Shown: positions 22,584-34,285, counted from the stretch's first letter. The stretch: DNA of 64,000 nucleotides from Escherichia coli (GCF_016903815.1 NZ_CP069973.1), one strand, 5' to 3'. The notes: generated by a model not told the origin, from the sequence alone. Made by a program: numbers and translations.

Positions 22584-24242
<1,659 letters not shown>

Positions 24243-24271
24243 TTGCCCTGCACCTCGCAGAAATAAACAAA

Positions 24272-24302
24272 CCCCCGGGCAGAAATGTCTGGGGGTTTTT
24301 CT
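24272..24302 (+). terminator. groSL rho-independent terminator
   Basis: The stem CCCCCGG...CTGGGGG is followed by a T-run. Confidence 0.8.
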
Positions 24303-24379
24303 TTTGGTCATCTTTCTAGTATAAGATTCAGACACGGACGACGCGAGTGGCGTCCAGCTCATTGATTATGGGGAATAAC

Positions 24380-24733
24380 ATGCACGTAAAATACTTAGCA
24401 GGGATTGTCGGTGCCGCGCTACTGATGGCGGGTTGTAGCTCCAGCAACGAATTGAGTGCTGCCGGTCAGAGTGTACGCATTGTGGACGAGCAGCCAGGCG
24501 CAGAGTGCCAGCTGATTGGTACTGCGACAGGTAAGCAAAGCAACTGGCTTTCCGGGCAACACGGTGAAGAGGGCGGTTCTATGCGCGGCGCAGCAAACGA
24601 TCTGCGCAACCAGGCGGCTGCAATGGGCGGTAACGTGATTTATGGCATCAGCAGCCCGTCGCAGGGGATGTTGTCCAGTTTTGTCCCGACGGATAGCCAG
24701 ATTATCGGCCAGGTATATAAGTGCCCGAACTGA
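24380..24733 (+). CDS. yjeI: Lipoprotein YjeI (DUF4156)
   Basis: MHVKYLAGIVGAALLMAGCSSSNE contains a lipobox (117 aa). Matches K-12 YjeI. Confidence 0.9.
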   Translation: MHVKYLAGIVGAALLMAGCSSSNELSAAGQSVRIVDEQPGAECQLIGTATGKQSNWLSGQHGEEGGSMRGAANDLRNQAAAMGGNVIYGISSPSQGMLSSFVPTDSQIIGQVYKCPN

Positions 24734-24782
24734 TGGGATCCAGAGGCTGGATACTTCCAGCCTCGTAGTAAAACAGATGGGA

Positions 24783-25652
24783 TTATTTCGCCTGTGGTGC
24801 AGTTTTGCTGGTGGATTGAACACGTAAGTGATGCAGCGCGCGTAAGCATTGATCCTGGGTTAGCGGTTGGGCGTTATTTGCCGCTACGGTGCGAACATAG
24901 ACCTGACATGGTACACCCGCGAGTTTTTTCAGTCGTGGGCTGAAATCAAGCATTCGGCGAGTGATCGCCTCCACTTCTTTACCCGGCGTTGCTTCACGCG
25001 TTTTCACCACTGCGCCGCTAAATTGTTCTTTGCCACTTTCATCTTTAAAGCGGTAAAGCACCGCCAGATAATGGTTGAACAAGTTATGTTTCCATTCCGG
25101 TTGGGAATAGGTGTCATATTCCAGATTGCCATTGTCCTGGCAGTCAACGTCGTATAACGGCAGGAAATCTAACAGTGAAGTAATACGTAATGCCAGTTCA
25201 CGCATTTCCGCATTATTAATTGCATGAATGATTGCTCGCGCCAGCATTTCAATCTGCAATTCATTGATGACTAACTCACATTTGCTACTGTCATGTAGCG
25301 TTAATACGAAGGTAAGATTTTCACCCTGATTATCGGTAAGTTCCAGCGTGTTAACCCGACGATTAATATCGGCATTTTTAAGCTCATCAACCAGAATTTC
25401 TGGTATATTTTCTGCCATTTTCTTAATGACTTTATCGCGAGCTTGCTCATACTGAAGGCGTGCAGCAGCATCCAGTTTATGCTTTTGATGCAGACGGCTT
25501 TCCAGCGCAATCAGAAGGTCGCGCAGTTCCATGACAGACAGAAAGAACAACGATTCTTTATTGCGAGGCTCTTTAATTTTCAGCGCCAGTGCAATGAAAT
25601 TATTACTCTTGCGAATAACACCGGTATTAACACCCTTGATGCTTATGGCCAT
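24783..25652 (-). CDS. yjeJ: Uncharacterised protein YjeJ
   Basis: A 289-aa ORF at the K-12 yjeJ position. The gene and its upstream region are AT-rich. Confidence 0.85.
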   Translation of the reverse strand: MAISIKGVNTGVIRKSNNFIALALKIKEPRNKESLFFLSVMELRDLLIALESRLHQKHKLDAAARLQYEQARDKVIKKMAENIPEILVDELKNADINRRVNTLELTDNQGENLTFVLTLHDSSKCELVINELQIEMLARAIIHAINNAEMRELALRITSLLDFLPLYDVDCQDNGNLEYDTYSQPEWKHNLFNHYLAVLYRFKDESGKEQFSGAVVKTREATPGKEVEAITRRMLDFSPRLKKLAGVPCQVYVRTVAANNAQPLTQDQCLRALHHLRVQSTSKTAPQAK

Positions 25653-25886
25653 GTAGGTTCTCCCTAACCATTTCTCAATTCAATAATTAATTTTAATTTA
25701 TAAGCCAGATAAATGGGCTTGGTAGTAATAGTTGTTAAAATAACATAAATAGCCGTGCTCACTCTATATAAACAGAAAAGAAAGGTTAATTATTGGTGTT
25801 GGTTATATAAAAAGTAATAACAGCAATGTATATGAATAATTAAAGGTTATGCAACGTGCAAAGATTAAACTTCCCTGTTTAATCAG

Positions 25887-26915
25887 TTACTGCTGGCGTA
25901 GCTGGAGATCCAGCGGCGTTTTGCTGGGTTCGCCGCCAATTTCTCGCGCCAGTTTAGGCACCAGATATCCCGACACCAGTGTCAGCAACTCACGCATAAT
26001 CTGCCGTGCTTCGTCATCACTCACCATAAAATGCGCCGCGCCCTGTACTTTATCGAGCACATGCAGGTAATACGGCATCACGCCGGCATCGAACAACGCA
26101 TTACTCAGGTTTGCCAGCGTTTGTGCGTTATCGTTCACGCCACGTAACAGAACGCTCTGGTTGAGCAAAGTAACGCCTACCCGGCGCAACTTAGCCATCG
26201 CCTGACGGAATGTTTCATCTATCTCATTGGCATGGTTGATGTGATTCACCAGCAAGATTTGCAGCGTAGAATGTGAAAAGCGTTCAACCAGCGCATCTGT
26301 GATGCGTGCCGGGATCACAATCGGCAGACGGCTGTGAATCCGCAGACGTTTGATATGCGGGATGGCTTCCAGTTGTGTGAGCAACCAGTCCAGCTCGTGA
26401 TCTTTCGCCATCAGCGGATCGCCGCCGGAGAAAATCATCTCGTCCAGTTCCGGATGCGCAGCAACATACTCAAGTGCAGTCTGCCAGTTACGCTTGTTGC
26501 CCTGATTTTCGGCATAGGGGAAGTGGCGACGGAAGCAATAGCGGCAATTTACCGCGCAGCCGCCTTTGACCAGCAAAAGCGCCCGGTTGTGGTATTTATG
26601 CAACAAACCTGGCACTACGCTGTGCTGTTCTTCCAGCGGGTCGGTGGAGAATCCGGGCGCGACGACAAACTCATCTTGCGAGGTAATTACCTGACGCAAA
26701 AGCGGATCGTTCGGATTGCCTTTCTCCATGCGATCGATAAATGAGCGGGGCACACGCAGGGCAAACAGCTTTTTGGCGCTGCATCCGGCCAACAGTTTTT
26801 CGTCCGCGTCTATATTCAAAAGACGCAGAAGTTCATCAGGATCGGTCACAACATCGGCAAGTTGCGTTAACCAATCTTCTCTGGATGGGGTATTTAGGGT
26901 TACAATATGCGCCAT
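25887..26915 (-). CDS. epmB: EF-P beta-lysylation: L-lysine 2,3-aminomutase EpmB (YjeK)
   Basis: 342 aa, with the radical-SAM motif CAVNCRYCFRR. It is divergent from efp. Confidence 0.95.
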   Translation of the reverse strand: MAHIVTLNTPSREDWLTQLADVVTDPDELLRLLNIDADEKLLAGCSAKKLFALRVPRSFIDRMEKGNPNDPLLRQVITSQDEFVVAPGFSTDPLEEQHSVVPGLLHKYHNRALLLVKGGCAVNCRYCFRRHFPYAENQGNKRNWQTALEYVAAHPELDEMIFSGGDPLMAKDHELDWLLTQLEAIPHIKRLRIHSRLPIVIPARITDALVERFSHSTLQILLVNHINHANEIDETFRQAMAKLRRVGVTLLNQSVLLRGVNDNAQTLANLSNALFDAGVMPYYLHVLDKVQGAAHFMVSDDEARQIMRELLTLVSGYLVPKLAREIGGEPSKTPLDLQLRQQ

Positions 26916-26956
26916 TTTGTGGCTTAGCTACCAATTAACAAATTTCAGAGGGCCTT

Positions 26957-27523
26957 ATGGCAACGTACTATAGCAACGATTTTCGTGCTGGTCTTAAAAT
27001 CATGTTAGACGGCGAACCTTACGCGGTTGAAGCGAGTGAATTCGTAAAACCGGGTAAAGGCCAGGCATTTGCTCGCGTTAAACTGCGTCGTCTGCTGACC
27101 GGTACTCGCGTAGAAAAAACCTTCAAATCTACTGATTCCGCTGAAGGTGCTGATGTTGTCGATATGAACCTGACTTACCTGTACAACGACGGTGAGTTCT
27201 GGCACTTCATGAACAACGAAACTTTCGAGCAGCTGTCTGCTGATGCAAAAGCAATTGGCGACAACGCCAAATGGTTGCTGGATCAGGCAGAGTGTATCGT
27301 AACTCTGTGGAATGGTCAGCCGATCTCCGTTACTCCGCCGAACTTCGTTGAACTGGAAATCGTGGATACCGATCCGGGCCTGAAAGGTGATACCGCAGGT
27401 ACTGGCGGCAAACCGGCTACCCTGTCTACTGGCGCTGTGGTTAAAGTTCCGCTGTTTGTACAAATCGGCGAAGTCATCAAAGTGGATACCCGCTCTGGTG
27501 AATACGTCTCTCGCGTGAAGTAA
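26957..27523 (+). CDS. efp: Elongation factor P
   Basis: 188 aa, [46 protein letters not shown]... Confidence 0.98.
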
Positions 27524-27574
27524 TGCGGTTGTGGTGCGGCCTGCAGGCTGCACCATCACTTATTCAGGTCAGAG

Positions 27575-27700
27575 ATGATGAAACGCCTTATCGTTCTTGT
27601 TTTGCTTGCCAGTGCGCTGCTCACGGGCTGTAACACCGCTCGCGGTTTTGGTGAAGACATTAAACATCTCGGTAATTCCATCTCCCGCGCTGCCAGCTAA
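27575..27700 (+). CDS. ecnA: Entericidin A lipoprotein (antidote)
   Basis: Hand-translated 41 aa, MMKRLIVLVLLASALLTGCNTARGFGEDIKHLGNSISRAAS, with a lipobox LTGC. It is below the ORF-track size cutoff. Confidence 0.9.
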   Translation: MMKRLIVLVLLASALLTGCNTARGFGEDIKHLGNSISRAAS

Positions 27701-27810
27701 TTTTTCTTCTCTTCCGAAAAATCATCAGATTTCCATCATTTTTGGTGATGTTGTCTATTATTAATTTGCTATAGGCAAACATAAATAACATTACCTAAAA
27801 GGAAGACGTT

Positions 27811-27957
27811 ATGGTGAAGAAGACAATTGCAGCGATCTTTTCTGTTCTGGTGCTTTCAACAGTATTAACTGCCTGCAACACCACGCGTGGCGTTGGTGAA
27901 GACATTTCTGATGGCGGTAACGCGATTTCTGGCGCAGCAACGAAAGCGCAGCAGTAA
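27811..27957 (+). CDS. ecnB: Entericidin B lipoprotein (toxin)
   Basis: Hand-translated 48 aa, [48 protein letters not shown], with an AAGGAAG SD upstream. Confidence 0.9.
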
Positions 27958-27993
27958 GCAATAACGGTACGACAGTTATGTCGTGCCGTTTGT

Positions 27994-28705
27994 TGTGCAC
28001 AGAAAACCCCCAGCTAGGCTGGGGGTTCCGGAAAGCTTTCAGCTTTGAGCCAGTTATTAAAACCCCTTTTGATTTGTTAAAACACCTTGCGGTCTGGCAA
28101 CTGCAAGTGTCAAACAAGAAATCAAAAGGGGGTCCCAATGGGGAACGAAAAGAGCTTAGCGCACACCCGATGGAACTGTAAATATCACATAGTTTTTGCG
28201 CCAAAATACCGAAGACAGGTGTTCTACAGAGAGAAGCGTAGAGCAATAGGCAGTATTTTGAGAAAGCTGTGTGAGTGGAAAAGCGTACGGATTCTGGAAG
28301 CTGAATGCTGTGCAGATCATATCCATATGCTTGTGGAGATCCCGCCCAAAATGAGCGTATCCGGGTTTATGGGATATCTGAAAGGGAAAAGCAGTCTGAT
28401 GCTTTACGAGCAGTTTGGTGATTTGAAATTCAAATACAGGAACAGGGAGTTCTGGTGCAGAGGGTACTACGTCGATACAGTGGGTAAGAACACGGCGAAG
28501 ATACAGGATTACATAAAGCACCAGCTTGAAGAGGATAAAATGGGAGAGCAGTTATCGATTCCCTATCCGGGCAGCCCGTTTACGGGCCGTAAGTAACGAA
28601 GTTGGATGCAAATGTCAGATCGTGTGCGCCTGTTAGGGCGCGGCTGGTAAGAGAGCCTTATAGGCGCATTTGAAAAACCTCCGGCTATGCCGGAGGATAT
28701 TTATT
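27994..28705 (+). mobile_element. IS200 (IS200/IS605 family); ends approximate (+/- ~15 bp)
   Basis: It contains a Y1 (HUH) TnpA gene. A left-end hairpin AACCCCCAGC-TAG-GCTGGGGGTT lies at 28005-28027. A long 5'-UTR stem (CCCCTTTTGATTTGTT 28063-28078 pairing with AACAAGAAATCAAAAGGGG 28113-28131) occludes the SD. A right-end hairpin CCTCCGGCTATGCCGGAGG lies at 28678-28696. All of this matches the described IS200 architecture (~0.7 kb). Confidence 0.85.
28138..28596 (+). CDS. tnpA: IS200 transposase TnpA (Y1 HUH)
   Basis: 152 aa, MGNEKSLAHTRWNCKYHIVFAPKYRRQVFYREKRRAIGSILRKLCEWKSVRILEAECCADHIHMLVEIPPK..., with the HUH motif HIH and a downstream catalytic Tyr region. The ORF-track start 51 nt upstream was rejected. 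Confidence 0.93.
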   Translation: MGNEKSLAHTRWNCKYHIVFAPKYRRQVFYREKRRAIGSILRKLCEWKSVRILEAECCADHIHMLVEIPPKMSVSGFMGYLKGKSSLMLYEQFGDLKFKYRNREFWCRGYYVDTVGKNTAKIQDYIKHQLEEDKMGEQLSIPYPGSPFTGRK

Positions 28706-28778
28706 TTTTTGCGATAGTCACAAAGGTAATAGTTGAAATTCCCCTGCCACCTGGCAAAATATCCGTTCAACCATCAGC

Positions 28779-28824
28779 TTTGCAGGACGACCTGCAAACG
28801 CCTCTTTTCACCGGGGACGGCCCC
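28779..28824 (+). promoter_or_regulatory. Guanidine-II riboswitch (mini-ykkC) in the gdx leader
   Basis: There are two hairpins, each with an ACGR tetraloop: TTGCAGG-ACGA-CCTGCAA (28779-28797) and GGGG-ACGG-CCCC (28813-28824). They are followed by CTCCGGAG containing the SD, 8 nt before the gdx ATG. Confidence 0.8.
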
Positions 28825-28842
28825 AATTCTCCGGAGCCTGAT

Positions 28843-29160
28843 ATGTCCTGGATTATCTTAGTTATTGCTGGTCTGCTGGAAGTGGTATGGGCCGTTGGCC
28901 TGAAATATACCCACGGCTTTAGTCGTTTGACGCCAAGTGTTATTACCGTGACGGCGATGATTGTCAGTATGGCGCTACTTGCCTGGGCGATGAAATCGTT
29001 ACCAGTAGGGACGGCTTATGCCGTGTGGACGGGTATTGGCGCAGTCGGCGCGGCCATCACCGGCATTGTGCTGCTCGGCGAGTCCGCTAACCCGATGCGC
29101 CTGGCGAGTCTGGCGTTAATCGTATTGGGGATTATTGGTCTGAAACTCAGCACTCACTAA
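28843..29160 (+). CDS. gdx: SMR-family guanidinium exporter Gdx (SugE)
   Basis: 105 aa, [66 protein letters not shown]... The ORF-track N-terminal extension runs through the riboswitch and was rejected. Confidence 0.95.
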
Positions 29161-29690
29161 CTACCGGGCTGCTGTACCCAAATAAACTTACTGACATCAA
29201 ACCCTTCCTGGGTCGCGACTGCCAGCATCTCCTGTTTCACTTCGTCAGAAATGGTTGGTGTGCGGGAGAGTATCCACAGGTAGTCGCGGTCCGGGCCGCA
29301 AACCAGCGCATGGCGGTATTCCCGATCGAGTGCAATAACGTTATAACCGCCATAGAAAGGACCAAAGAATGACACTTTCAGCGCAGCGCGAGTTGGTGCG
29401 CCGGTAAAGTACGCTTTCCCTTCACTCTGCTGCCACATTTCTCTGTCAGGGTTATAGCCTTTATTAATGACATTCAGGCCGCCGTCATCCCGCAGGCTGT
29501 ATGTTGCGGTGACTTTTTCCAGTCCACGTTCAAAGCGGTGATCAAAACGGGCAATCTCATACCAGGTACCGAGATAGCGTTTAGCATCGAAATTATTCAC
29601 TACGGTCACGCCACGGGGCGGCGTAGGAGAACTGCAGGCAACGACCAGAAATGCAGCTGTCGCTGCGGCAACGAGAGGGAGCAGGCGCAT
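29157..29690 (-). CDS. blc: Outer-membrane lipocalin Blc
   Basis: 177 aa, [56 protein letters not shown]... Confidence 0.95.
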
Positions 29691-29777
29691 AAATGTTTCC
29701 TTACTGGTTTTTTCTAAGTGTAGATGACAGCAAGGAAAAGCGCAGAAAAGGTCCGAAAATTCGGACCCGATGAAATT

Positions 29778-31333
<1,556 letters not shown>

Positions 31334-31343
31334 CTCAGGCTCC

Positions 31344-32476
<1,133 letters not shown>

Positions 32477-32484
<8 letters not shown>

Positions 32485-34285
32485 TCGCCTTCTCCTTCTT
32501 ATTGGCTGCTTCCGCCTTATCGGCTGCATCCGCTTCGCCACCGTAGACGCGTTTAGCTGGCGGCAGCGTAGTAATCTTCACGTCGCTGTACTCCAGGCGA
32601 GTTGTGCCATCAGCATCGCGGAAGGCGAGGGTGTGTTTGAGGAAGTTGACGTCGTCACGCTCGGTGCAACCTTCGTCCAGACGCTGGTGCGCGCCGCGGG
32701 ACTCTTTACGTGCCATTGCGGAGTGCGCCATACATTCAGCAACGTTCAGACCGTGACCCAGTTCAATGGTGTAGAGCAGGTCGGTGTTGAACACGCTGGA
32801 GGTGTCGGTGATGCGCACGCGCTTGAAGCGTTCCTGCAGCTCAGCCAGCTTGTCGATGGTTTTCTGCATCAGTTCCGGCGTACGGTAGATACCGCAACCT
32901 TCTTCCATAGCCAGGCCCATTTTGTCGCGGATCTTCGCCCAGTTTTCGCCGCCATCCTGGTTAACCAGATCTTTCAGACGTTGTTCAACGCCAGCTGCCT
33001 GCGCTTCAATTGCCGCTTCGTTGCCATTACCGGCAGTTGCTGCACGCTCTGTCGCTTGTTCACCGGCCAGACGGCCGAAGACCACCAGTTCCGCCAGGGA
33101 GTTGGAGCCCAGACGGTTTGCACCGTGCAGACCAACAGAGGAACATTCACCCACGGCGAACAGACCTTTAATGCGGGTTTCACAGTTCTGATCGGTTTCG
33201 ATACCGCCCATGGTGTAGTGTGCGGTCGGACGTACCGGAATCGGTTCTTTAACCGGATCGACGCCAACGTACGCTTTCGCCAGTTCGCAGATGAACGGCA
33301 GACGTTCATGCAGTTTTTTCTCGCCGAGGTGACGCAGGTCGAGATAAACCACATCGCCACGCGGCGTGGAGATGGTGTTGCCTTTACGCCATTCGTGCCA
33401 GAAGGCCTGAGAAACTTTGTCGCGTGGACCCAGTTCCATATATTTGTTTTTCGGCTCGCCCAGCGGAGTTTCCGGGCCCATGCCGTAATCTTGCAGATAA
33501 CGGTAGCCATTTTTGTTGACCAGAATACCACCTTCACCGCGGCAGCCTTCTGTCATCAGGATACCGGAACCTGGCAGACCGGTTGGGTGATACTGAACGA
33601 ATTCCATGTCACGCAGCGGAACGCCGTGGCTTAGCGCCATACCCATACCGTCACCGGTAACGATGCCGCCGTTGGTGTTGTAACGATAAACGCGACCCGC
33701 ACCGCCGGTAGCCATAACGACCGCGTTAGCACGGATCTGCACCAGCGTGCCTTCCATCATGTTCATTGCTACCAGGCCGCGAACATGACCATCATCAACC
33801 AGAATATCCAGCACGAAATGTTCGTCAAAACGCTGGATCTGCGGGAATTGCAGAGAGGTCTGGAACAGCGTGTGCAGCATATGGAAGCCGGTCTTATCGG
33901 CGGCGAACCAGGTACGCTCGATTTTCATGCCGCCGAAGCGACGTACGTTGACGCTACCATCCGGGCGACGGCTCCATGGGCATCCCCACAGTTCCAGTTG
34001 GGTCATTTCGGTTGGGCAGTGGTGGACGAAATAATCCACGACATCCTGCTCACACAACCAGTCGCCACCCGCTACTGTATCGTGAAAGTGATATTCGAAG
34101 CTGTCATGATCCTGCGCGACAGCGGCGGAGCCCCCTTCTGCAGCAACGGTATGGCTACGCATCGGGTATACTTTTGAGATTAGTGCGATTTTTGCATTTG
34201 GATTTGCCTGCGCGGCAGCAATTGCAGCACGTAATCCCGCGCCACCGGCGCCTACAATGGCAAGATCGGCTTGAAAGGTTTGCAC
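32477..34285 (-). CDS. frdA: Fumarate reductase flavoprotein subunit
   Basis: 602 aa with a GTG start, [29 protein letters not shown]... Confidence 0.97.

Follow-up and report, generated by a model that had tools for sequence, protein, structure and literature searches.

The window analyzed here, a stretch of 64,000 nucleotides from Escherichia coli (GCF_016903815.1, NZ_CP069973.1), carries an insertion sequence (IS) between ecnB and gdx. The genes in this part of the window follow the order efp, ecnA, ecnB, IS and gdx (also named sugE), with blc and ampC further downstream on the opposite strand (Table 1). The first-pass annotation had assigned the range 27994-28842 to the insertion. This range covers the IS together with the gdx leader, while the element itself occupies 27995-28705. 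The RefSeq accessions of the EcnB and Gdx proteins (WP_000239596.1 and WP_000118482.1) are the same in the IS-carrying and the IS-free genomes examined.

Table 1. Features of the efp-gdx region, numbered from the first nucleotide of the window.
Feature	Position	Strand	Evidence and remarks
efp	26957-27523		
ecnA	27575-27700		Pfam-confirmed
ecnB (entericidin B lipoprotein)	27811-27957	+	48-aa ORF; Pfam Entericidin E=4.3e-07; RefSeq WP_000239596.1
ecnB hairpin of predicted intrinsic terminator, ACGGTACGACA-GTTA-TGTCGTGCCGT	27964-27989	+	fold -23.5 kcal/mol, z=-6.2 (folded 27958-28000)
Target hexamer TTTGTT, proximal part of ecnB terminator T-tract	27989-27994	+	empty-site comparison
IS200C, GTGCACAG...ATATTTATT	27995-28705	+	711 bp
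Left-end perfect hairpin	28005-28027	+	fold -18.7 kcal/mol; element nt 11-33
art200 (STnc490), ~90-nt antisense RNA to tnpA 5'UTR and first three codons	28057-28146	-	expected position by homology only (PMC4513863)
SD-sequestering 5'UTR stem	28063-28131	+	fold -40.4 kcal/mol, z=-3.9 (folded 28034-28145)
tnpA, Y1 HUH transposase, intact, 152 aa	28138-28596	+	Pfam Y1_Tnp PF01797 E=3.8e-38, residues 11-129
Right-end hairpin, then terminal ATATTTATT ending the element	28678-28705 (hairpin 28678-28696)	+	fold -15.9 kcal/mol, z=-4.3
Distal T5 of ecnB terminator T-tract, now 3' of IS right-end hairpin	28706-28710	+	empty-site comparison
Predicted gdx sigma-70 promoter: TTGAAA, 16-nt spacer, TG-extended CAAAAT	28733-28760	+	promoter scan
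Guanidine-II (mini-ykkC) riboswitch, P1 loop ACGA, P2 loop ACGG	28779-28825	+	Rfam RF01068, 50.4 bits vs gathering score 32, E=2.4e-08
gdx (sugE), guanidinium exporter	28843-29160	+	Pfam Multi_Drug_Res E=1.9e-33; RefSeq WP_000118482.1; SD GGAG 28833-28836

The hairpin downstream of ecnB was also called by a separate test for terminator-like structures (hairpin plus T-run), and in IS-free genomes it is directly followed by TTTG-T7. Judging from the sequence, we predict that hairpin and T-tract together act as an intrinsic (Rho-independent) terminator. With the IS present, pairing in this terminator can be extended between the upstream GCAAUAAC and GUUUGUUGC, the latter including the first two bases of the IS (27958-27996); the A-tract/T-tract arrangement of this segment is typical of bidirectional terminators. 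On the other side of the IS, the gdx leader contains a guanidine-II riboswitch with two ACGR-loop hairpins, followed by the SD and gdx, and its Rfam score exceeds the gathering score.

The insertion is a complete, intact and ordinary IS200C, which is already annotated in public genomes. Its transposase carries the HUH motif at residues 61-63 (H61-I-H63) and the catalytic tyrosine Y125 within YIKHQ (125-129). Its TnpA has the RefSeq accession WP_000526135.1 in common with every other copy fetched, six further E. coli copies among them, and at the identical locus of other genomes RefSeq labels tnpA as 'IS200/IS605-like element IS200C family transposase'. The 709-bp core of the element (27995-28703) is 100% identical to copies annotated as IS200C that other E. 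coli genomes carry at different places. tnpA is the only ORF covering most of 27995-28705; the remaining frames are short and overlapping, and none is longer than an antisense one of 121 aa. An element of 711 bp leaves no room for tnpB, which is absent. Neither end, GTGCACAG or ATATTTATT, is an inverted copy of the other, so that the element has no terminal inverted repeats, and subterminal hairpins are found at both ends. The Y1 HUH transposase, the lack of tnpB, the subterminal hairpins, the absence of a target duplication, the site-specific insertion in one orientation and the near-identity to IS200C place the element in the IS200 group of the IS200/IS605 family.

The internal organization of the element corresponds to that described for IS200. 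The terminator hairpin of IS200 was reported at nt 12-34 and its SD-sequestering stem at nt 69-138 (PMC4513863). By analogy with the function published there, the hairpin at 28005-28027 would act as a bidirectional terminator that blocks incoming transcription. Rfam STnc490 (RF01405) matches 28005-28128 on the + strand over the full model (146.4 bits compared to a gathering score of 56, E=3e-31). This match is in the sense direction of the tnpA 5'UTR, whereas STnc490/art200 is described as an antisense RNA in PMC4513863; the Rfam model may therefore represent the opposite strand. In Salmonella IS200, the antisense RNA art200 represses translation of tnpA (PMC4513863). The right-end hairpin is terminator-like on both strands. 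An additional Rfam match to Ysr202 (28673-28724, - strand) was dismissed as similarity between terminator hairpins: the gathering score is 315, the match reached 26 bits, and the part of the model that it covered was confined to the 3'-terminal hairpin. The complete IS200 proposed in the first-pass annotation, with its 152-aa TnpA, left hairpin, SD-occluding stem and right hairpin, is thereby confirmed by Pfam, Rfam, folding and RefSeq.

Compared with IS200 of Salmonella enterica, we find no structural difference: the E. coli IS200C likewise has a single Y1 HUH gene, a length of ~707-711 bp, no inverted repeats and no target duplication, and it shares the left-end terminator hairpin, the SD-sequestering stem, the STnc490/art200 region and the right-end hairpin. 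The length of the copy next to ecnB is 711 bp by end mapping, whereas 707 bp is quoted for Salmonella IS200. IS1541 of Yersinia pestis and Y. pseudotuberculosis has exactly the same 24-nt left-end hairpin, and its loci in Y. pestis also follow a hairpin and T-run. It differs slightly in the first 10 nt (GTGCCCAGAA against GTGCACAGAA) and is a separately named element of a different host. The exact 24-nt left-end hairpin was additionally found in Yersinia, Vibrio, Serratia, Citrobacter and Phytobacter (loci L006-L125), as well as in metagenome-assembled genomes labeled Elusimicrobia, Desulfovibrionaceae/Mailhella, Clostridia and Bacilli. Among these loci (L006-L125), the element differs from group to group in its first 10 nt. 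The distribution can be read as very wide horizontal spread or as contaminated bins.

Comparison with empty sites placed the ends of the IS200C at 27995 and 28705, giving 711 bp and no target duplication. The empty site of strain 755 reads GTTTG-T7-GCG, and removal of 27995-28705 from the window reproduces it exactly, for 150 nt to the left and 150 nt to the right of the junction. A 709-bp boundary was rejected, as removing 27995-28703 does not reproduce this site. A length of 710 bp, arising from a one-T ambiguity in the comparison with strain 2012C-4221 (GTTTG-T8-GCG), was ruled out by strain 755, by three other sites and by a tandem arrangement at another locus (L099). When the IS200C copies downstream of pheP, deoD and guaA were compared to the respective empty sites of K-12, each consisted of the 709-bp core plus TT, again with no duplication. 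The tandem locus, read on the reverse strand, contains a perfect head-to-tail dimer of an IS200-type element (copies from ~2146 and ~2857, identical at 711 of 711 positions) with a period of 711 and the junction ...ATATTTATT|GTCTATGG... (ATTTATT|GTC), and its right flank begins with a G and not a T. The second copy appears to have used the right end of the first, ATTTATT, as its target.

The insertion point is thus located 3' of TTTGTT, and the original T7 was split into two Ts on the left and five Ts on the right of the IS. In K-12, where IS200 is absent from the ecnB-gdx spacer, in keeping with the first-pass annotation, the uninterrupted sequence reads ...GTCGTGCCGTTTGTTTTTTCTGCGATAG... The annotation had further expected an insertion 3' of a short specific sequence and no target duplication, and the IS-free alignment bears out both. 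Its placement of the element beside the ecnB terminator is also correct, but the IS does not start directly after the hairpin and lies inside the T-tract. As a consequence, the T-tract of ecnB was shortened from TTTGTTTTTTT to TTTGTT, followed by GTG, and the left-end hairpin of the IS begins 10 nt further on. The shortened T-tract may weaken the termination of ecnB transcription.

The same insertion was detected in 68 of 5426 complete E. coli genomes. Across the insertion and its flanks (1501 bp), the best 30 of the 68 carrier genomes are 100% identical, and the best 60 of the 68 share at least 99.98% identity over 10 kb, which points to a single event followed by clonal inheritance. Among the carriers, WCHEC96200 belongs to ST405, phylogroup D (PMC5762679), WCHEC4533 was included in an ST405 comparison (PMC9037040), and several records are named 'strain 405'. 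On the basis of these two named strains and the record names, the carrier clone is apparently ST405. The proposed use of the insertion as a lineage marker is consequently well founded, and the junctions 27994/27995 and 28705/28706 can serve to recognize the clone by PCR or in silico. One member of the clone, E. coli E597 (NZ_CP049197.1; H169), carries an extra IS4 within the region matching 23500-33500, by which the match is split in two and spans 11.4 kb.

Full-length IS200 is present in 2063 of the 5426 complete genomes, with a median of one place per genome, and 2330 of the 5426 gave no IS200 match. Carriers of the ecnB insertion, by comparison, have 17-35 IS200 places per genome, against a published E. 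coli average of 2.9 (PMC4513863), and the number differs between near-identical genomes. IS200 has clearly multiplied in the carrier clone. Transposition in this family proceeds via single-stranded DNA intermediates, and the range of places within the clone suggests that it has been recent or is continuing, despite the reputation of the element for dormancy. The earlier summary of IS200 biology (rare transposition, a left-end terminator and regulation by the 5'UTR and art200) agrees with PMC4513863 and PMC5435999, but the wording 'very rarely' needs to be qualified for a clone with this many places compared to a species median of one.

To the right of the insertion, the window and K-12 agree at every position from 28711 on. 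This identity takes in the predicted promoter, the riboswitch and the SD, and extends 58 nt into gdx, up to the end of the alignment at 28900. A promoter scan of 27500-29200 returned TTGAAA-N16-TGgCAAAAT (28733-28760) as the only promoter-like site. The first-pass annotation had pointed to the same site as TTGAAA-N17-AAAATA (~28733-28761), which was read one base off; the scan prefers TTGAAA-N16-CAAAAT with a TG-extended -10. An experimentally mapped start site or promoter of gdx was not found in the literature searched. The right end of the IS lies 27 nt upstream of the predicted -35 hexamer, at about -62 from the predicted gdx start, and 73 nt before riboswitch hairpin P1, in good agreement with the ~75 nt estimated before. 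The small ORF yjeV, which had been named as part of this spacer, is located ~16 kb away and adjoins orn and datA (PMC10950094, PMC12625342). The K-12 spacer itself is free of RefSeq annotations.

One could suppose that an element ending this close to the -35 hexamer changes gdx regulation, by insulating the gene from read-through, by altering basal promoter activity or both, and that IS-carrying strains consequently differ in guanidinium export. Two extra hairpin terminators now stand between ecnB and gdx, all DNA upstream of about -62 has been replaced, and the ecnB T-tract has been shortened. However, the ancestral spacer from the terminator hairpin to P1 measured only ~80 nt and was already located behind the ecnB terminator. 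Since the ancestor had this terminator and the same short spacer, the IS neither newly insulates gdx nor shortens its promoter region; the most it can contribute is a pair of consecutive hairpin terminators between the two genes. The earlier proposal that the IS insulates gdx is therefore not supported, and the ~70 nt that it was said to leave for the initiation of gdx transcription correspond to the already short spacer of the ancestor. An altered basal expression of gdx is likewise unsupported, given the K-12-like sequence from 28711 onward, including the core promoter, the region from -40 to -60, the riboswitch and the SD, the distance of the IS from the -35 hexamer and the unchanged Gdx protein. 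Additionally, the promoter scan found no outward promoter-like site in the right end of the IS, and the general target pattern of the element, described below, already explains its position. We consider such a change in gdx regulation unlikely. From the sequence comparison, the insertion would be close to neutral for ecnB and gdx, with room for a small effect on gdx; any regulatory site beyond about -62 would be displaced by 711 bp.

A different rearrangement of the same region was observed in E. coli UPEC129 (NZ_CP071522.1; L005, 2960-3080), which has lost ecnA and ecnB together with the terminator of ecnB and the predicted promoter of gdx. This deletion joins the sequence following efp straight to riboswitch hairpin P1 at a shared ACCATCAG, and transcription of gdx would have to come by read-through from efp in this strain.

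A benefit of the insertion could also be imagined, either as a repeat that aids amplification of the ampC-blc-gdx segment or through a higher dose of the regulatory RNAs of IS200. ampC is located ~1 kb beyond gdx, and ampC amplicons from laboratory evolution often end in ecnB or in the ecnB/sugE spacer, with sugE co-amplified (PMC12625342). The 17-35 IS200 places of the clone could recombine, and IS200 5'UTR RNAs regulate host genes in Salmonella (PMC5435999). Against this, the 64-kb window holds no second IS200 that could bracket ampC, no amplification was seen in any genome examined, and clonal hitch-hiking explains the distribution without a benefit. We regard retention of the insertion for such an advantage as very improbable.

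To place the ecnB site among other insertions, the exact 24-nt left-end hairpin was scanned in one genome per species, which yielded 117 distinct sites with enough upstream sequence. A GC-rich hairpin with T-run was located directly upstream of the element at 95 of the 117 sites (81%). Within these loci, such a structure preceded 0.9% of random positions (44 of 4998) and 9% of the TTTNTT motifs found elsewhere. Almost without exception, the six bases directly 5' of the left end were TTTNTT, and the element started at a constant position relative to the T-run. The six other E. coli copies follow the hairpin and T-run of pheP, cspB, deoD, guaA, icd and yfeX, and tnpA is oriented in the same direction as the terminated gene in all six. 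According to a survey from 2026, ISs are preceded by sequences resembling terminators, most strongly so in IS200/IS605 (PMC13548323). This was the only such report in the literature searched, which yielded no earlier paper explicitly naming terminators as the target of IS200 or IS1541. The residence of IS200 in terminator T-tracts, already reported statistically, is the sole point of wider interest in this locus.

By its sequence, the ecnB T-tract looks like a typical site of the element, and since a position at a terminator is typical of IS200-type elements in general, it can be explained without reference to gdx. We therefore conclude that a single IS200C insertion into the T-tract of the ecnB terminator, in the ancestor of one clone (apparently ST405), very probably accounts for the locus. 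The site would represent the usual target of the element and have nothing to do with gdx, and the insertion is expected to be nearly neutral.

How such sites come to be occupied can be explained in two ways. IS200-group transposases might actively recognize intrinsic terminators in single-stranded DNA. In that case, a host hairpin with TTTNTT at a set distance behind it would mimic the right end of the element itself (hairpin, 9 nt, ATTTATT). Alternatively, the link to terminators may reflect purifying selection and not target choice, if the element inserts at any T-rich site and only harmless, quiet copies behind terminators persist. The sample consists of fixed, surviving copies only, 22 of the 117 sites failed the terminator test, and IS200 was originally described from a polar insertion within hisD, so that intragenic insertions do occur (PMC4513863). 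The enrichment is nevertheless large (81% against 9% for TTTNTT elsewhere), the start position relative to the T-run is constant, and the orientation of the six E. coli copies is uniform. Distance and orientation are not obviously fixed so tightly by selection alone, and many other intergenic T-runs should be no less harmless. Selection as the full explanation thus appears doubtful to us, while survival of harmless insertions may contribute to the association. Active recognition of terminators is an attractive but still tentative idea, to which we would give somewhat less than even chances.

IS608 and ISDra2 offer a model for the underlying mechanism. Insertion of these elements is likewise confined to the 3' side of a short specific sequence, with a single orientation and without duplication. 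They have subterminal hairpins, and their right end resembles the target, as does ATTTATT in comparison to TTTNTT here. Unlike IS200, they also possess tnpB, and their targets are TTAC or TTGAT; pairing between guide and target in IS200 is presumed by analogy with them. To our knowledge, a requirement for a hairpin at the target is not part of the known IS608/ISDra2 mechanism. A comparable niche is occupied by group IIC introns, mobile elements that home just after intrinsic-terminator hairpins, oriented with the terminated gene. Being retroelements with a ribozyme and a reverse transcriptase, they share with IS200 this niche alone, and their mechanism is unrelated.

Returning to IS200C at the ecnB terminator, we propose that the element would move as a single strand by 'peel and paste', as in IS608/ISDra2, and would choose a site 3' of TTTNTT behind a GC-rich hairpin, with tnpA pointing in the direction of the terminated gene. 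In this model, the T-rich target would pair with A-rich bases located 5' of the end hairpins, which act as a guide, cleavage by the transposase would take place 3' of TTTGTT, and the end of the element, ATTTATT, would mimic this target. In the present order, the ecnB hairpin has a short T-tract and is followed by the left-end hairpin of the IS, a tightly repressed tnpA, the right-end hairpin with the leftover T-tract, and an unchanged gdx promoter, riboswitch and gdx. The main role of the insertion would be that of a marker for the clone, and it adds a further copy to a genome already rich in IS200.

The locus itself matters little, as the copy looks neutral, is annotated by RefSeq and is present in 68 complete genomes; in the clone, the ecnB-gdx spacer is 711 bp longer than in K-12, and the gdx control region is unchanged. 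For the family, active recognition of terminators, if true, would mean that the element homes in one orientation to harmless sites that are shielded from transcription, with the ecnB insertion as a textbook instance, and it would account for how a 'dormant' element can reach 20-40 copies without damage. The occupancy of terminator T-tracts, co-oriented with the terminated gene, helps to explain why IS200 is tolerated at high copy number.
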